Shown piece by piece: positions 45,319 to 48,574 of a stretch of DNA of 64,000 bases; the first letter of the stretch is position 1; every line of letters starts with the position of its first letter. A program made the translations under genes and the position numbers. Location: assembly GCA_047946875.1 (NCBI GenBank), contig CP181398.1:1169329-1233328 (forward strand), written 5' to 3'. The stretch is from Candidatus Kerfeldbacteria bacterium (GTDB taxonomy: Bacteria > Patescibacteriota > Patescibacteriia > UBA10025 > JAHIVO01). Below the pieces are notes generated by a model. It was not told the origin of the DNA, made no database searches, and worked only from the letters and a program-made list of their open reading frames with translations.

Positions 45319-45362
45319 TGCCGCGAGCGGCCCCGCCTTGGCGGGATTTCGTCACTCCGTGT
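45319..45362 (-). pseudogene. degenerate 3' fragment of tRNA-Leu(UAA) carrying a GC hairpin
   Basis: CCGCTCGCGGCA versus the tRNA 3' end CCCGCGGCA. Adjacent hairpin ccccgccttggcgggg. Confidence 0.45.
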
Positions 45363-45432
45363 CTCAAGACTCTTAATATTTTAATATAATTAATCTTGAG
45401 TATTGTAATAGTTATTGTTTAAAAATATAAGT

Positions 45433-45516
45433 TGCCGCGGGTGGGACTTGAACCCACAAGGTCTTGCAACCACTGGATTTTAAGTCCAGCGCGTATACCA
45501 GTTCCGCCACCGCGGC
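45433..45516 (-). tRNA. tRNA-Leu (UAA), long variable arm, no CCA encoded
   Basis: Anticodon loop CTTAAAA. Confidence 0.85.
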
Positions 45517-45975
45517 CTATTTGTTTATAATGTTAAAGACAGTAATACCTAGAGCGACTGATACATTGAGAGATTCTTTTTTTCCATGCATTGGTATGTC
45601 AATTATAGTATGACAATTTTTTAGTATAGAGCTATCTAATCCCTTTACTTCATTGCCAACTACTAAGGCAATTGGATACTTTGGTTTTAATTTTGTATAA
45701 TCAATACTTTTTTTTGATTGTTCTAAGGCAATTATTTGAAATCCTTGCTTTGCCAGTTTTTTTAATAAATGATTCGTTTGAGTAATTTTTTCAAAAGGAA
45801 TATTTTTTTCTGCTCCTAAAGCTACTTTGTCTATTTTTGGATGTGGAGGAGCAGGAGTTATTCCAGTAAGGAATATTTTATCAATACCAGCAGCGTCAGC
45901 TGTACGAAATATCGATCCAACGTTGAATCGACTCCTGATATTTGGAAGGATTAAATAAAATATTTTATTATTCAT
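45517..45975 (-). CDS. trmL: SpoU/TrmH-family tRNA 2'-O-methyltransferase (TrmL-like)
   Basis: VGSIFRTADAAG, LVVGNEVKGL and IPMHG..ESLNVSVA motifs. 152 aa. Confidence 0.8.
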   Translation of the reverse strand: MNNKIFYLILPNIRSRFNVGSIFRTADAAGIDKIFLTGITPAPPHPKIDKVALGAEKNIPFEKITQTNHLLKKLAKQGFQIIALEQSKKSIDYTKLKPKYPIALVVGNEVKGLDSSILKNCHTIIDIPMHGKKESLNVSVALGITVFNIINK

Positions 45976-45989
45976 CTGTTGAATGTAAA

Positions 45990-46021
45990 TGGAGCGGCAA
46001 ATTCCGCTGAGCGGGATGAGC
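45990..46021 (-). pseudogene. degenerate 3' fragment of tRNA-Gly(GCC) with a GC hairpin
   Basis: tggagcggcaaa is identical to the tRNA 3' end, then attccgctgagcggga hairpin. Confidence 0.5.
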
Positions 46022-46082
46022 TTTTAGTATTAAGTGAGATTAATTAATAATCTTAGAATAAAATTTATAAGTTAATTTGTAA

Positions 46083-46159
46083 TGGAGCGGCAAACCGGAC
46101 TCGAACCGGCGACCTTTTCCTTGGCAAGGAAACGCTCTAGCCAACTGAGCTACTGCCGC
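46083..46159 (-). tRNA. tRNA-Gly (GCC), CCA encoded
   Basis: Anticodon loop TTGCCAA. Confidence 0.85.
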
Positions 46160-46262
46160 GCGTCGAAATAGTTTTTCTGGCTCCGTTTCCAATCAAGATT
46201 GAAAACTGCACCATTTACACTATTTCTCCTTCTCCTCGTCCCGAACTGCGGGACTCGGTAAA
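46160..46262 (-). promoter_or_regulatory. conserved tRNA-upstream element (copy L3)
   Basis: gcgtcgaaatagtttttctggctccgtttccaatcaagattgaaaactgcacc...ctcgtcccgaactgcgggactcgg. About 90 percent identical to 47269-47372. Confidence 0.55.
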
Positions 46263-46272
46263 GATTAATTTA

Positions 46273-46348
46273 GTGGAGGCCACGAGCGGAATCGAACCGC
46301 TGAATAGAGGTTTTGCAGACCCCTGCCTTACCACTTGGCTACGTGGCC
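46273..46348 (-). tRNA. tRNA-Cys (GCA), CCA encoded
   Basis: Anticodon loop CTGCAAA. Confidence 0.85.
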
Positions 46349-46474
46349 ACAGCCAGATTAATAATATCTTATGTGCTGCTACGTAAAAATATAATACCAG
46401 AAAAATCATAATTTATCAAGAAGAATAGGTAATAAATATATGATTAAAAGTAAGTATTTAAGTAGTTAATTAAA

Positions 46475-46987
46475 TTATAATATTTCAATAGTGACATGTC
46501 TTATGCCCCATTGCTTTGCCTCTTCACGTGTTTCCATCCAGATGTCGGCTTTGTGCCAATATCTAGCAGCCATACGATCTTCTACAACAAATATTTTATT
46601 GCCAAAGTATTCAGGAAATCTAACACGAGTTCCAATTTTTAGGAAGTTAGCAGCGATAATACCATCTCTTACATGTGCTCCTGAGGCAGTTATAAATGGA
46701 TTACCCGATGTTTGGTCAGGTGTTGAAGAATATGCGGTCACAGGTATCACCATTGTTCTTATTGTTACTGGTTGAGGTCTATCTTCATTAATAGGTAGAC
46801 GGTTTAATGTATCAAATACATTAATTTCCCATTGTTTCGTAAATCTTGATTGGATTTCAGGATATTCAATCTCTATTAGGCTTGTTTGAGCTACTACCTG
46901 TTGAGGGAAGGAATATTGCCAAAATATGATAGTTAATACAGCAAAGATAAGTGCTTTAGTTTTTACTGAATTGAATTTTAATTTCAT
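46475..46987 (-). CDS. secreted 3D-domain protein (MltA/YuiC-like cell-wall-binding domain)
   Basis: TAYSS.PDQTSG...TASG..V..GIIAAN...GT.V.....F.V.DR 3D-domain signature. N-terminal signal/TM segment. Confidence 0.75.
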   Translation of the reverse strand: MKLKFNSVKTKALIFAVLTIIFWQYSFPQQVVAQTSLIEIEYPEIQSRFTKQWEINVFDTLNRLPINEDRPQPVTIRTMVIPVTAYSSTPDQTSGNPFITASGAHVRDGIIAANFLKIGTRVRFPEYFGNKIFVVEDRMAARYWHKADIWMETREEAKQWGIRHVTIEIL

Positions 46988-47077
46988 AGTTAATTTAGTG
47001 GTAATTTAAGCTAATTTTAGCCTAAATGTATATAATTAGACCTATTTAATATTTATTGTTTATTAATAAATAGGTAT

Positions 47078-47101
47078 CAAAAAACACCCTAACATAGGGT
47101 G
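47078..47101 (-). terminator. rho-independent terminator downstream of tRNA-Gly(UCC)
   Basis: caccctatgttagggtg plus T6 on the minus strand. Confidence 0.6.
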
Positions 47102-47193
47102 CGTTTGATGGATCATCTTAGCATATAGGTTTATTGTGTCAAGGGGTATAGAAACATTAATAAAAAAACCTAACATATAGTTAGATTCTTTTG

Positions 47194-47268
47194 TGGAGCG
47201 GGTAAGGGGAATCGAACCCCTGTTTTCAGGTTGGAAACCTGACATAATAGCCATTATACGATACCCGC
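47194..47268 (-). tRNA. tRNA-Gly (UCC), CCA encoded
   Basis: Anticodon loop TTTCCAA. Confidence 0.85.
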
Positions 47269-47372
47269 GCGCGTCGAAATAGTATTTCTGGTTCCGTTTC
47301 CAATTAAGATTGAAAACTGCACCCTATGCACTATTTCTCCTTTTCTCGTCCCGCACTGCGGGACTCGGTTGA
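47269..47372 (-). promoter_or_regulatory. conserved tRNA-upstream element (copy L4)
   Basis: See L3. Confidence 0.55.
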
Positions 47373-47374
47373 GA

Positions 47375-47950
47375 CTAAGTTATTAAAGTTATTCCTTTTG
47401 AAGCAAGAATGGTTACCAATAAAGTGAATGACATATCTCCTAGAGTGATTATGATCAGCATCTTTTTAGGAGGATATTTTATAGCTGCAAGGAATAGTAT
47501 TAGAATGTCATTTGGTAGAGGTGTAAATCCAATATAAATATATGATATTAAAGGAATTGCTTTTTCTAACCATTTTCTTTTTTTAAAGAAGTGCGCAACT
47601 TTATCAATTCTTTCTGTCCACTTTTCATTTATTAGTTCTCGTCCTTTAGAACCTGCATAAAACATTATCATATCGCCAATTGCAAGTCCAATGCCAGATA
47701 CTAATCCCAAGTAAATTGGATCCATGCCTCCGACTACAAGTGTAATAATAAGACTAATGAAGGAGATTGATCCACCAGCAGAAAAACCACCAAACAATGA
47801 AACAAAGAATGCAAGGATGTATCCATTTTGTACACCTATTTTATCTACTATCTCTTCTGGACTGATAAAATATAAAAGGGCGGTCAGTAATATCAAAAAT
47901 ATGACTAGGATTGAAAAAATTATTATTTTTTTTCTATAATTTTCTATCAT
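47375..47950 (-). CDS. DedA/VTT-domain (YqaA-like) membrane protein
   Basis: Multi-TM sequence that is YqaA/DedA-like. Confidence 0.65.
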   Translation of the reverse strand: MIENYRKKIIIFSILVIFLILLTALLYFISPEEIVDKIGVQNGYILAFFVSLFGGFSAGGSISFISLIITLVVGGMDPIYLGLVSGIGLAIGDMIMFYAGSKGRELINEKWTERIDKVAHFFKKRKWLEKAIPLISYIYIGFTPLPNDILILFLAAIKYPPKKMLIIITLGDMSFTLLVTILASKGITLIT

Positions 47951-47966
47951 ATTTTAATTAACATTG

Positions 47967-48293
47967 CTATGGTTGCCAGAGATACTTATTAAGATCTATA
48001 AAATAACTCTCCTCTTTCTTAATAACTTTTACATTTTCTTTTCTTAGAAGTGTTGCTTGTACATTAGCTGAATGTTCTCTACAAGTTGTACTGATTCTTC
48101 CTTCACGATTAATAATTCTTTGCCAAGGTGTTTCTTTTAGTAAATTGTCCGGTAATATATGTAGGGCCCAGCCAACTTGCCTGGCAGCGCGTGGAGAACC
48201 AATCAACGCAGCAATTTGTCCATAAGTAGCAACTTTGCCTCGTGGTACTTTTTTGGTTAGTCTGTAAACTTTTTGAAAGAAATTTAAGGACAT
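47967..48293 (-). CDS. alkyltransferase-like (ATL) protein: MGMT DNA-binding domain with the active-site Cys replaced by Trp
   Basis: VATYGQIAALIG...PWQRIIN (PWxR instead of PCHR). ATG MSLNFF at 48293. The ORF-track N-terminal extension across the tRNA-Pro fragment is rejected. Confidence 0.65.
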   Translation of the reverse strand: MSLNFFQKVYRLTKKVPRGKVATYGQIAALIGSPRAARQVGWALHILPDNLLKETPWQRIINREGRISTTCREHSANVQATLLRKENVKVIKKEESYFIDLNKYLWQP

Positions 48294-48321
48294 AGATATT
48301 GTTTCTAAACAGTGTTGGGAT

Positions 48322-48363
48322 GGCGAGACTCGAACTCGCGACCCCTCGCTCCCAAAGCGAGTG
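48322..48363 (-). pseudogene. partial duplicate of the tRNA-Pro 3' half
   Basis: 42 nt identical to 48397-48438 of tRNA-Pro. Confidence 0.7.
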
Positions 48364-48387
48364 ATAGTTAGTATTAATACATCTAAG

Positions 48388-48461
48388 TCGGGGTGGCGAG
48401 ACTCGAACTCGCGACCCCTCGCTCCCAAAGCGAGTGCGCTAGCCAACTGCGCTACACCCCG
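48388..48461 (-). tRNA. tRNA-Pro (UGG), no CCA encoded
   Basis: Anticodon loop TTTGGGA. Confidence 0.85.
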
Positions 48462-48519
48462 ACACAGATGTATTACTAACTATTTTATTTTCAAGGTAAT
48501 GATTTTATTGGAAACTGCG

Positions 48520-48549
48520 CCTGCCTGCCGGTAGGCAGGCTACACCCCG
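48520..48549. repeat. GC-rich palindrome (cctgcctgccggtaggcagg) followed by a 10-nt duplicate of the tRNA-Pro 5' end
   Basis: Same palindrome family as 11171-11190 and 6087-6103. Confidence 0.55.
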
Positions 48550-48574
48550 TAACTATATAGAAAGTTTGGTAAAA

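Follow-up and report, generated by a model that had tools for sequence, protein, structure and literature searches.

tRNA genes and partial copies in the window

The window, by which we mean the whole stretch of 64,000 nucleotides analysed here, is part of a metagenome-assembled genome (MAG) and carries 11 tRNA genes, all on the minus strand (ARAGORN and Rfam). Cognate pieces were found at Arg, Lys, Pro, Ile and Gly-GCC and, weakly, at Leu-TAA; summed, the exact matches are specific to the cognate tRNA. Since Leu-GAG, Cys, Gly-TCC, Phe and His have no exact cognate piece of at least 9 nt within 500 nt, it is 5 to 6 of the 11 genes, and not most of them as stated in the initial annotation, that are flanked by their own partial copies. 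In the window as in relatives, the upstream pieces are 5' parts and the downstream pieces 3' parts.

At the tRNA-Arg locus, the exact pieces (16/16, 12/12, 12/12, 11/11 and 9/9) are collinear over 19039-19362:

19363-19470, minus: structured leader element, abutting the outer tRNA-Arg 5' end (cmsearch, 110 bits)
19351-19362, minus: outer tRNA-Arg(TCT) positions 1-12, 12/12 identical to the intact gene
19321-19350, minus: double GC hairpin TCCGGCnnnGCCGGA-TCAGGCnnnGCCTGA, inserted in the outer Arg D arm
19312-19320, minus: outer tRNA-Arg positions 13-21 (9/9)
19294-19311, minus: left inverted-repeat arm CCTGCCCGCCATTGCCAT of the tRNA-loaded insertion
19220-19293, minus: inner tRNA-Arg(TCT), intact, CCA not encoded (ARAGORN/Rfam)
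19203-19219, minus: right inverted-repeat arm TGGCGATGGCAGACGGG
19039-19202, minus: outer tRNA-Arg from position 22 to CCA, in pieces (19187-19202, 19137-19147, 19113-19118 and 19039-19053) separated by a compound hairpin (19148-19186), a T-loop double hairpin (19083-19112) and a hairpin (19054-19069)

The outer 5' and 3' pieces abut exactly, at 21/22. With 5' pieces upstream, 3' pieces downstream and the two abutting, the intact, arm-flanked tRNA is an insertion within a resident copy, and the pieces are not isolated att scars. Several piece coordinates given earlier were off by a few bases: the Arg 5' piece at 19346-19357 becomes 19351-19362 plus 19312-19320, and the Pro 5' piece at 48541-48549 becomes 48539-48549 plus 48513-48520.

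GC-rich hairpins, single or double, break up the resident halves further, and some of them have copies in other parts of the window. They are both repeated and polymorphic: the double hairpin of 19321-19350 has further copies at 29249-29278 and 34087-34116, making three in the window, and is missing from the outer Arg piece of relative L028. The tRNA-flank zones, 2.8 kb in all, hold 18 of the 29 GC-rich hairpin clusters that lie outside RNA genes (binomial p = 7e-18, for zones drawn post hoc), a count that bears out the earlier remark that GC hairpins sit within the relics. Hairpins also occur in TrmD and the tail of NusA. The ~40 window ORFs checked revealed no transposase, HUH, RtcB or EndA domain.

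The Arg structure is also present, at the orthologous place, in relative L073, where it is decaying. Between window and L073, identity amounts to 72/74 in the inner tRNA and 33/35 in the arms, against 51/59 in the outer pieces and 74/99 in the hairpin inserts, which have decayed to non-pairing in L073. Divergence of the outer pieces is thus about 5-fold that of the inner gene.

The neighbouring tRNA-Lys locus has a similar relic, with exact pieces of 40/40 (18432-18471), 12/12 and 11/11, and a predicted nuclease:

18920-19027, minus: leader element, abutting the intact tRNA-Lys (cmsearch, 106 bits)
18843-18919, minus: tRNA-Lys(CTT), intact (ARAGORN/Rfam)
18534-18803, minus: GIY-YIG ORF, 89 aa, between the intact and the broken tRNA-Lys (Pfam PF01541, E = 8e-10)
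18432-18575, minus: broken resident tRNA-Lys without nt 1-6, in pieces (18565-18575, 18530-18537, 18494-18504 and 18432-18470), with GC hairpins at 18542-18562 (D loop), 18509-18529 (26/27) and 18471-18489 (canonical 37/38)

The Pfam match (E = 8e-10) confirms the domain of the GIY-YIG nuclease announced at 18534-18803. The final ~14 codons of the ORF run through the tRNA-Lys relic and a hairpin. The GIY-YIG ORF at the matching place in L028 is only 31% identical to that of the window; in L028 and L044 the tRNA-Lys directly 3' of the ORF, the same arrangement as in the window, is intact.

The Pro and Ile loci are organized as follows:

48513-48549, minus: outer tRNA-Pro 5' part, consisting of nt 1-11, an 18-nt GC hairpin (48521-48538) and nt 10-17
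48364-48512, minus: insertion in outer Pro, with a 51-nt spacer, an intact tRNA-Pro and two arms, left 48466-48482 (within the 51-nt spacer) and right 48365-48384 (duplex z = -6.1)
48387-48461, minus: inner tRNA-Pro(TGG), intact
48314-48363, minus: outer tRNA-Pro 3' part, nt 26 to end (43/43; Rfam tRNA, 29.1 bits)
48880-48989, minus: degenerate upstream tRNA-Ile copy, with nt 1-15, a 66-nt insert and a remnant
48909-48974, minus: the Ile insert, a GC-rich compound hairpin of 66 nt
48759-48835, minus: tRNA-Ile(GAT), intact (ARAGORN/Rfam)

The exact Pro pieces measure 43/43 (48321-48363) and 11/11 (48539-48549), a gap of 8 nt separates the outer 5' and 3' pieces, and the 3' part has 2 substitutions in the acceptor strand. 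The Ile piece is 15/15 at 48975-48989, followed by a degenerate remainder.

Shorter relics are those of Gly-GCC, Leu-TAA and His type:

45988-46001, minus: displaced tRNA-Gly(GCC) 3' end, TTTGCCGCTCCA+TT (12 nt plus 2 flank nt)
46002-46082, minus: window-specific insert after tRNA-Gly(GCC), a 66-nt AT-rich stretch and a GC hairpin (46002-46016)
45318-45330, minus: displaced, slightly mutated tRNA-Leu(TAA) 3' end, CCGCTCGCGGCAA (8 exact nt only)
45331-45432, minus: window-specific insert after tRNA-Leu(TAA), an AT-rich stretch and a GC hairpin (45332-45345)
11159-11305, minus: second copy of the element downstream of tRNA-His, between His-type 3'-end relics (11292-11305 and 11159-11170), with a GC hairpin (11171-11186)
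6129-6142, minus: isolated His-type 3'-end relic, the same 14-mer as 11292-11305

Direct repeats of the tRNA 3' end, 12-14 nt long, border the inserts at Gly-GCC and Leu-TAA, an arrangement that a short att-type or target-duplicating event would also give. The sequence 11292-11305 copies the His-type 3' end plus flank, and the 6129-6142 relic is preceded by GC hairpins at 6143-6212. Of the His-like fragments, those at 11292-11305 and 6129-6142 are thus copies of one 14-mer from a 3' end; 5071-5110 is a weak, degenerate T-arm/acceptor.

Empty and filled sites in relatives

A close relative, L074, which shares 89% nucleotide identity with the window over 3761 aligned columns, has each of the Ile, Pro, Gly-GCC and Leu-TAA genes once and intact, that is, empty sites. 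The outer Pro halves and the Gly and Leu relics of the window bear the flanks of L074: the upstream flank of the outer Pro 5' part is that of its single intact tRNA-Pro, and the downstream flank of the 3' part also agrees. The Gly-GCC relic stands where L074 has its intact 3' end, immediately before the SpoU start, and the Leu-TAA relic is validated by an intact 3' end at the same spot with the same downstream flank. The Pro insertion is missing from both L074 and L076, where the Pro site is empty as well, and the whole Ile block of 153 nt is missing from L074. The search for empty sites suggested in the initial annotation was therefore positive, these two relatives having single intact genes where the window has relics. 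Other sites tell the same: the resident variant disrupted in L029 (Arg) is intact in L033, and that disrupted in L001 (Gly-GCC) is intact in L007.

A family of hairpin arms with tRNA cargo

Arms of the family CCTGCCCGCC...GGCAGGCGGG, with a conserved C.A mismatch, were also found in L001, L005, L028, L043, L047, L051, L058, L059, L073 and L075. They enclose Arg-TCT, Arg-TCG, Arg-CCT, Leu-TAA or Gly-GCC, and in L041, in L063 and in one element of L058, the first of a tandem pair, a non-tRNA loop, so that one arm family is common to different tRNA cargo and to cargo-free elements. Insertion positions differ (21/22, 25/26, 33/34, 37/38 and 38/39). In all cases with enough flank, the tRNA-loaded cassette lies within a resident tRNA of the same anticodon. 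This nested geometry comes with clean junctions, the outer pieces abutting at Arg 21/22, at 38/39 in Gly-GCC of L001 and at 61/62 in Gly-TCC of L002/L008. In-silico excision from the first to the last arm base yields an ARAGORN-valid tRNA with the anticodon of the cargo at five loci: L043 (TCG), L051 (TCG), L058 (CCT), L059 (CCT) and L005 (TAA). Five of the outer copies still fold perfectly, as would be expected of recent insertions but equally of intron-like sequences. The outer copy of L028 has lost its 3' half.

In L029, L043, L005, L001 and L075, inner and outer copies are different variants, with compensatory changes in several stems, so that at these loci the inner copy did not arise by local duplication. 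The window has 100% identity between inner and outer pieces for Arg and Lys and only 2 differences for Pro, and by this argument a local origin may apply there. Position 21/22 recurs in several Arg loci, and 38/39 recurs in Gly-GCC with swapped variants (L001, L075); survivorship alone does not explain such recurrence. AT-rich arms, with no relation to the GC family, occur at Pro, Gly-TCC and Cys. Pairing between arms is kept through full compensation between L002 and L008. No second copy of the AT-rich spacers in the insertions at Pro, Gly, Leu and Ile turned up in the window or in the relatives' sequences compared; judged from these sequences, the spacers are not a demonstrable repeat family. 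Neither ~430 kb of low-GC sequence nor the T-arm motifs of the window revealed an interrupted tRNA without an intact same-anticodon partner.

Origin of the relics

Integrated elements are the standard source of tRNA fragments (PMC9897764), and the relics were initially taken for scars of repeated integration and excision of genomic islands or prophages by a tyrosine integrase. Repeated tRNA 3' ends downstream of Gly-GCC, Leu-TAA, Lys and Pro, and a tyrosine recombinase gene adjoining the Arg locus (19516-20397), speak for it. The insertion events were indeed repeated; the integrase mechanism is largely refuted and now highly improbable. Signs of excision did not turn up. The 5' parts are duplicated too, abutting 3' parts, and the exact abutment at Arg is not the product of an integrase crossover. 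Gene and relic are 23-370 nt apart, not kilobases, with no element genes and only tRNA, inverted-repeat arms and short spacers between the pieces, and the insertions hit different points in the D, anticodon and T regions. The recombinase does have its domain, but it is Xer-like and not a dedicated integrase: its best NCBIfam matches are XerD/XerA/XerC, its more than 6000 close homologues are, among those listed, mostly Patescibacteria, and the PNPase-NYN-S15-Xer synteny is conserved in relatives L029, L031/L032 and L033 (S15-Xer on the short contig L028). Misassembly of repeats, conceivable in a MAG, has a practically negligible chance of being the explanation, as the architectures recur in independent assemblies: L031 equals L032 over the ~1.1-kb stretch compared (ENA, JGI), L028 and L044 are alike by eye (NCBI, JGI), and L036 and L037 are near-identical. 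The GIY-YIG ORF raises the question of homing with co-conversion, in which a free-standing nuclease would cut the tRNA gene and repair from a donor allele would copy the nuclease gene and an adjacent intact tRNA, displacing the resident. Free-standing homing-endonuclease genes do drag flanking sequence along, as for T4 SegB, a GIY-YIG homing enzyme in a tRNA cluster, and for the hybrid atp6 gene of Allomyces with its displaced 3' pseudogene; at Lys, too, a small nuclease gene adjoins a functional copy and a displaced resident fragment. The ORF lies exactly between intact and broken tRNA-Lys and reads into the relic, and its 31% identity with the L028 counterpart, compared with 79% for Xer, suggests turnover. 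We nevertheless consider this scenario quite improbable: a predicted nuclease ORF was seen at Lys only, and not beside the Arg, Pro, Ile, Gly and Leu events of the window or, as far as inspected, the cassettes of L043, L051, L058 and L059, and the target sequence is often kept in the inner tRNA (L001).

A purely local history, with tandem or slipped tRNA duplications, decay of the extra copies and later arrival of GC hairpins, would dispense with a mobile cassette. The identity of inner and outer Arg and Lys copies and near-identity of Pro in the window agree with it, as do the single-copy spacers, the Ile block, which resembles a tandem duplication of flank and gene, and part of L002, where a 44-nt upstream flank is repeated. 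It is unlikely all the same, because the Pro spacers and arms are new sequence relative to the L074 locus, which duplication cannot create, exact 5'/3' abutment would not be expected if the duplications were independent, the inner copy is another variant than the outer one in L029, L043, L005, L001 and L075, and the same arms surround different tRNAs in different genomes and positions. The clean junctions might instead point to intervening sequences that are cut out of the RNA, with a functional outer tRNA and an inner one housed in a tRNA 'intron'. Valid same-anticodon tRNAs after exact removal at five loci, the preference for loops, among them the T loop and, in Arg, Lys and L058, canonical 37/38, arm pairing maintained by full compensation (L002 versus L008) and the slower divergence of outer pieces than of hairpins would suit such a reading. 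What makes it very improbable is that, read from sequence, the junctions display no bulge-helix-bulge geometry, that interrupted tRNAs without an intact partner were not met in ~430 kb of low-GC sequence or among the window T-arm motifs, that outer copies lose whole segments (8 nt in Pro, nt 1-6 in Lys, the 3' half in L028) and diverge ~5 times faster than the inner gene, and that hairpins decay to non-pairing in L073; comparable mitochondrial hairpin elements, moreover, stay in transcripts (PMC2800124).

Comparison with known systems

We found no published description of such nested tRNA cassettes. The REP/REPIN elements of Proteobacteria are inverted REP doublets mobilised by RAYT transposases. 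As here, they are short, GC-rich imperfect palindromes whose mobile unit is a two-arm hairpin with a spacer, non-autonomous and persisting in compact genomes; unlike them, the present elements lack a visible GTAG/CGTC head motif, and the search for a RAYT in the window was negative. REPINs lie outside genes, and none is known with tRNA cargo or inside tRNA genes. The palindromic elements of Rickettsia lie in frame in protein genes, and also in RNA genes, of a reduced genome, and the window hairpins in the NusA tail and TrmD are similar in this respect; however, the Rickettsia elements measure 100-150 bp, and are neither GC hairpins of 15-30 nt nor carriers of tRNA.

In the attL/attR sites of prophages, ICEs and genomic islands, the insertion likewise supplies replacement sequence, the tRNA gene keeps working, and the displaced resident fragment persists as a direct repeat (PMC9897764). 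Here, by contrast, a whole tRNA is supplied and not the 3' part alone, both resident halves stay, and the insert is ~110-175 nt, gene-free, at scattered positions and without a dedicated integrase. The GC clusters, double-hairpin and repetitive hairpin-forming elements of yeast, Allomyces and sponge mitochondria are also GC-rich single or double hairpins in AT-rich compact genomes, scattered in spacers, RNA genes and some ORFs, and polymorphic between relatives (PMC2800124, PMC4478555); they are not removed from transcripts (PMC2800124). These are organellar, however, and reported in variable rRNA regions and spacers, with none reported to shred duplicate tRNA genes or to hold a tRNA between its arms. 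Archaea have multi-intron, split and permuted tRNA genes and, in Thermoproteales, intron transposition (PMC4390854, PMC4090602, PMC10714607), with inserts at canonical 37/38 and many non-canonical positions and related inserts across several tRNAs. Their introns have bulge-helix-bulge motifs and are removed by EndA and ligase from a gene that is the sole copy, whereas here such a motif was not seen and an intact copy is always present.

Proposed mechanism

Small palindromic insertions would have split resident tRNA genes, the partial copies being the halves or leftovers. One class of insertion would be a hairpin-armed cassette, with two inverted-repeat arms around a complete tRNA gene of the same anticodon. 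Arms and cargo probably move as one unit. The cassette would enter a loop or loop-stem junction cleanly, with neither target duplication nor loss where both junctions are readable; the Pro site of the window, with 8 nt missing, is the exception. A structure-specific enzyme acting on single-stranded hairpin DNA can be guessed at as a candidate. The inner copy would then take over the tRNA work, with transcription presumably starting at the resident promoter or leader and release left to the normal tRNA end-processing enzymes, while the arms clamp this inner tRNA into its own fold. The resident halves, now free to decay, would gain point changes, deletions and further GC hairpins, single or double, of broadly the same sort, and recombination between identical inner and outer stretches could delete one side and leave a lone 5' or 3' fragment. 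Repeated rounds would produce Russian-doll relics. The constant match of cargo and target presumably reflects survival: an essential single-copy tRNA tolerates only insertions that are self-compensating, and a site preference may add to this effect.

In this Patescibacteria genome, about half of the tRNA genes are nested in, or adjoin, a broken older copy of the same gene, and we favour, as the rather likely cause, palindromic insertion elements, some loaded with a tRNA, that disrupt the resident tRNA gene and replace it.

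Partial copies of tRNA genes

The window is low in GC (about 33%) and includes a bacterial 16S gene; its 11 tRNA genes all lie on the minus strand. The relatives traced through its neighbouring proteins are Patescibacteria, the named ones including Kerfeldbacteria, and for Xer and MGMT the window's proteins match those of a 'Candidatus Kerfeldbacteria' MAG at 100% identity. Most of these relatives (handles L001 to L076) are single metagenome contigs, and all inferences rest on sequence. Position numbers are sequence indices unless called canonical.

The initial annotation held that most tRNA genes here are flanked by partial copies of themselves. 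Exact cognate matches far above chance were found at four genes: Lys (40/40, 12/12 and 11/11), Pro (43/43 and 11/11), Arg (five collinear pieces, each 100% identical to the intact gene) and Ile (15/15). The Gly-GCC piece consists of the 12-nt 3' end plus 2 flank bases, and the Leu-TAA piece, of just 8 exact bases, was validated by comparison with the close relative L074. Since a cognate versus non-cognate control ties the matches to the flanks of the gene in question, and the flanks of Leu-GAG, Cys, Gly-TCC and Phe contain no exact cognate pieces, the partial copies are real for five to six of the 11 genes, short of 'most'. The companion statement that GC hairpins sit in the scars held: 18 of the 29 hairpin clusters lie within tRNA flanks making up 4.4% of the window, zones that were drawn after inspection.

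Downstream of the 16S gene come tRNA-Ile, Phe and Pro, then protein genes (48836-50698); as 23S and 5S genes are absent from the window, the rRNA genes seem not to be linked. An 8-nt direct repeat, ATTAATCT, on both sides of tRNA-Cys (46349-46365 and 46258-46273) may be due to chance or be a small target duplication.

Organization of the disrupted loci

Read on the minus strand, the pieces at each locus follow the order of the tRNA gene and belong to a second copy of it. The split copy is called outer here and the intact copy inside it inner, or cargo; the inverted repeats bracketing the cargo are arms, arms and cargo together form a cassette, and a broken tRNA piece is a relic.

Arg: leader (see below), outer nt 1-12, double hairpin, outer nt 13-21, left arm, intact tRNA (without CCA), right arm, outer nt 22-37, hairpin at 37/38, outer nt 38-48, T-arm 5' strand, T-loop double hairpin, T-arm 3' strand, hairpin, acceptor 3' strand and CCA
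Pro (same plan): outer 1-17 with one hairpin, spacer, arm, intact gene, arm, outer 26-end
Lys: intact gene, GIY-YIG ORF, copy without nt 1-6 and with three hairpins (D loop, 26/27, canonical 37/38)
Ile: degenerate upstream copy with a 66-nt GC insert
Gly-GCC and Leu-TAA: intact gene, 65-85-nt AT-rich spacer, GC hairpin, 12-13-nt 3' end

Joined outer Arg halves would read GCCCTTGTAGTT-CAACGGATA-GAACAACGG. The order of the Arg pieces implies that the intact gene is an insertion at 21/22 of the outer gene, with neither duplication nor loss. An encoded CCA is missing from four tRNA genes (inner Arg, Pro, Phe and Leu-TAA) and from most cargo tRNAs of relatives; outer Arg and the Lys relic do carry CCA, and the window has a gene for the CCA-adding enzyme (ORF 13603-15057).

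Ahead of the tRNA-Lys relic the GIY-YIG ORF lacks a stop codon of its own, and its last ~14 codons are read from that relic and a GC hairpin (18534-18575). The 30-nt double hairpin of outer tRNA-Arg has two intergenic copies, in opposite orientations, both between co-directional genes and with common flanks AATAATT...AATTAA. Other GC-rich hairpins lie in frame within protein genes, in regions that are likely insertion-tolerant, and are reminiscent of Rickettsia palindromic elements.

29249-29278: intergenic double hairpin
34087-34116: intergenic double hairpin, opposite orientation
29118-29136: in-frame hairpin, NusA C-terminal tail
51396-51417: in-frame hairpin, TrmD linker
4036-4094: in-frame hairpin, small Cys-rich ORF (roughly 3924-4100)

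Empty and filled sites in relatives

L074 (a contig from ERR1019576), whose MGMT is 91% identical to that of the window, is collinear with 45150-49560 (89% nucleotide identity over 3761 aligned columns), and there Ile, Phe, Pro, Gly-TCC, Cys, Gly-GCC and Leu-TAA are each single and intact. The window has in addition:

153 nt: pseudo-Ile block
88 and 73 nt: around inner Pro
93 nt: behind Gly-GCC
116 nt: behind Leu-TAA

A comparison with related genomes for empty sites, as the initial annotation had proposed, thus yielded them at Ile, Pro, Gly-GCC and Leu-TAA in L074, and at Pro also in the relative L076, so that these insertions are recent in the window's lineage. The outer Pro halves retain the upstream and downstream flanks of L074, and the outer copy is therefore the resident one; the Gly-GCC and Leu-TAA relics occupy the exact places of L074's intact 3' ends. 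Because no second copies of the AT-rich spacers were found in the window or the collected sequences of relatives, the cassette status of Pro, Gly-GCC and Leu-TAA rests on geometry and on the empty sites. L074 also has ~780 nt more downstream of tRNA-Gly(TCC) (its 1990-2780 versus 47149-47161), with a GT2 glycosyltransferase gene that runs on the other strand and that the window does not have.

The Arg structure is, judging from sequence, older than the Pro, Ile, Gly-GCC and Leu-TAA events. At the Arg locus, L073 matches the window in leader, double hairpins, cassette and pieces, but in decayed form (positions identical to the window: inner tRNA 72/74, arms 33/35, outer pieces 51/59, hairpin inserts 74/99). 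In L028 and L044 (Xer 79% identical) the cassette is kept, the outer 5' piece is contiguous, mutated and without the double hairpin, and the outer 3' part is absent; an intact tRNA-Lys lies directly downstream of their GIY-YIG ORF, in the place of the window's broken Lys. Resident variants stand intact elsewhere, in L033 (Arg) and L007 (Gly-GCC).

Nested tRNA genes and a shared arm family

The order Cys-Gly(GCC)-SpoU-Leu(TAA) around the SpoU gene is conserved in relatives, many of which have 5' pieces upstream that complement 3' pieces downstream:

Gly-TCC (L002, L004, L008): intact gene inserted at 61/62, double hairpin in T loop
Gly-GCC (L001): nested, 38/39
Cys (L001, L008), Ala and Leu (L012), Leu (L005), Phe (L075): complementary pieces

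Long inverted repeats flank the intact inner genes (duplex z of -7.3 to -2.1 for the top 12 tRNAs, most of them nested). Between the Gly-TCC arms of L002 and L008, five positions have changed on both sides with pairing still perfect, which is, on sequence grounds, a better case of covariation than the Arg arms of the window and L028; the four pairing-compatible transitions in the latter have a chance probability of ~0.25 by our own estimate and are not counted as evidence.

Leu-TAA of L005 likewise sits between the Arg arms, CCTGCCCGCCATTGCCAT and TGGCGATGGCAGACGGGG, and Gly-GCC of L001 and of L075 is bracketed by the outer halves of these arms. When metagenomes were scanned for the arm pair (family signature CCTGCCCGCC/GGCAGGCGGG), 40 loci came up, about 28 of which, on high-GC contigs and with no tRNA between the arms, were discarded. 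Nine of the 11 low-GC loci enclose a tRNA-Arg (TCT, TCG or CCT), each within outer tRNA-Arg sequence, and the outer anticodon is that of the cargo where readable (L043, L051, L058, L059), the remaining outer copies being degraded or ended by a contig edge. The other two lie in intergenic DNA with an AT-rich loop of ~70 nt between the arms, and in L058 two elements, the one empty and the other loaded, stand in tandem at 37/38. Exact in-silico removal of the element gave an ARAGORN-valid outer tRNA with the cargo's anticodon in L043, L051, L058, L059 and L005. In several stems, compensatory changes often set the inner copy apart from the outer (L029, L043, L005). L001 and L075 share the arms and the 38/39 site, with two Gly-GCC variants swapped between inner and outer positions, and in L031 three layers of 3' relics follow one another, each after a right arm.

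Leader and other repeated elements

Ahead of tRNA-His, Lys, outer Arg, Gly-GCC, Gly-TCC and Phe lies the leader, a conserved structured RNA element of ~108 nt that ends at, or 2 nt before, position +1 of the tRNA. Its consensus comprises a variable hairpin, GGAGAAAT, a 9-bp closing helix, a GGTGn/n'AACC helix, a second variable hairpin and the end TTCGACGC; 15 of the 27 predicted pairs show compensatory changes. A second repeated element of ~130-190 nt, with the motifs GGAATCGAACGGnTAGAAGCGAG ... CGCTACCCAGGACAAGGAGC ... GCGACGCGnAATTC, occurs behind tRNA-His, Lys and Gly-TCC. Its ends mimic an inverted T loop, and a relic of T stem and acceptor 3' strand follows it where readable (the window's second copy, L031, L009, L075); behind the window's first copy the relic is degenerate, and the L076 contig ends too early to show it. 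Another conserved leader (...TTTGCGGAAAG..TCGAAAAC...AAAAGGAGTTTTCGAAA) stands ahead of tRNA-Arg(TCT) in three relatives.

11970-12086, 18920-19027, 19363-19470, 46160-46265, 47271-47375, 48647-48753, minus strand: leader
L001 4778-4889, L009 5775-5883, L031 4956-5061, L073 1236-1342: leader in relatives
11700-11893, 11159-11291, minus strand: second element, first and second copies
L031 5190-5365, L009 1060-1400, L075 1875-2015, L076 1320-1402: second element in relatives
L029 4410-4530, L031 4420-4577, L033 4420-4537: other leader, Arg(TCT)

Within the tRNA clusters, Rfam (gathering and E-value thresholds) matched tRNAs and 16S only, and neither the leader nor the second, post-His element. 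The Ile-Phe spacer of L074 has no leader, and its orthologous Gly-TCC and Gly-GCC sites have a different leader variant; hence the leader family has itself been gained, lost or exchanged. Candidate roles of the leader are a processing signal, a ribozyme or a small RNA arising from tRNA processing.

Comparison with known systems and proposed mechanism

The initial annotation had ascribed the partial copies to integration and excision by an integrase, an account that fails at these loci on three defining features of att duplications. The gaps between gene and relic measure 23-370 nt and contain only arms, spacers, hairpins or one 89-aa ORF. An att duplication is one-sided, normally on the 3' side, whereas Arg and Pro have both outer 5' and outer 3' parts, those of Arg abutting at 21/22; Gly-GCC and Leu-TAA, taken alone, do show the one-sided 3' duplication. 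Nor does the 'tyrosine integrase' qualify as the element's own, for the sole recombinase is Xer-like and stands in conserved PNPase-NYN-S15 synteny. DDE-type MITEs and IS elements combine terminal inverted repeats with a short target-site duplication, whereas the GC-armed cassettes inserted without duplication or loss and at the Gly and Leu inserts the tRNA end is repeated over 12-14 nt, more than is usual for such a duplication. About 40 ORFs of the window yielded no transposase-like domain. In homing-endonuclease replacement, a gene at the junction encodes a nuclease that cleaves the empty allele. A nuclease gene lies at the Lys junction only, and the GIY-YIG ORF, just 31% identical to its L028 counterpart and thus sharply different, explains at most that locus.

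The systems most similar in kind are the hairpin doublets known as REP/REPIN and, in mitochondria, GC clusters and double-hairpin elements. A REPIN is an inverted pair of short GC-rich repeats, present in many copies, that folds into a long hairpin. The arm pairs here fold into hairpins; the double hairpin has 3 copies in 64 kb, and the arm family was found at ~12 loci in different genomes. No GTAG or CGTC head is visible in the arms, and no HUH domain (RAYT of REPINs is a Y1 HUH protein) was found among about 40 ORFs of the window. The mitochondrial elements are likewise GC-rich single and double hairpins dispersed in an AT-rich genome and differ in presence between relatives, a likeness in kind that does not imply homology. 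To our knowledge, none of the three systems (att duplications, REP/REPIN, mitochondrial hairpin elements) has tRNA cargo or is nested in its own gene. Our searches of the open-access literature found neither tRNA genes described as nested within copies of themselves nor comparable elements in Patescibacteria/CPR.

The mitochondrial hairpin elements stay in transcripts (PMC2800124). Excision of the hairpins and cassettes from the transcript, with rejoining of the outer halves, would make these genes protein-processed, multiply interrupted bacterial tRNA genes with a second complete tRNA inside the intervening sequence, a counterpart of the archaeal multi-intron tRNAs with a plain long helix as recognition structure. 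This seems very improbable. At the junction, the terminal bases of the arms are paired with each other without 3-nt bulges, and our reading of the sequence gives no bulge-helix-bulge of the archaeal type. An archaeal interrupted gene is functional and often the sole copy, whereas an intact partner is always present here; the lack of any interrupted tRNA without such a partner in about 430 kb argues against removal at the RNA level. Tandem duplication as a general origin is rejected for Pro, where the spacers are new sequence, and is kept for Ile.

We consider it more likely than not, from the sequences compared, that tRNA genes are invaded by palindromic insertion elements, some of them with a tRNA gene as cargo. 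Loaded elements would survive in an essential gene by taking over its function, and the resident halves would afterwards decay and gather more hairpins. The cargo anticodon is always that of the target in readable cases, even where the sequences differ strongly; such differences (L043) make homology-guided targeting of the cargo unlikely, and the match is best explained by survival of self-compensating insertions. The repeated use of particular positions suggests an added site preference. Candidate enzymes for the insertion are HUH/Y1, Xer, GIY-YIG and YraN-like nucleases.

Significance

On this reading, a tiny non-coding element can invade an essential single-copy gene without killing its host, as it brings a working copy between its arms, and once loaded would thereby become indispensable. 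Such insertions would explain the litter of tRNA fragments at Patescibacteria tRNA loci, which gene finders may miscall. Comparisons of filled and empty sites date the insertion events directly, and the layers of relics may serve as natural markers for reconstructing the horizontal exchange of tRNA genes between lineages. The finding points to a hairpin-handling activity in a huge group of uncultured bacteria.
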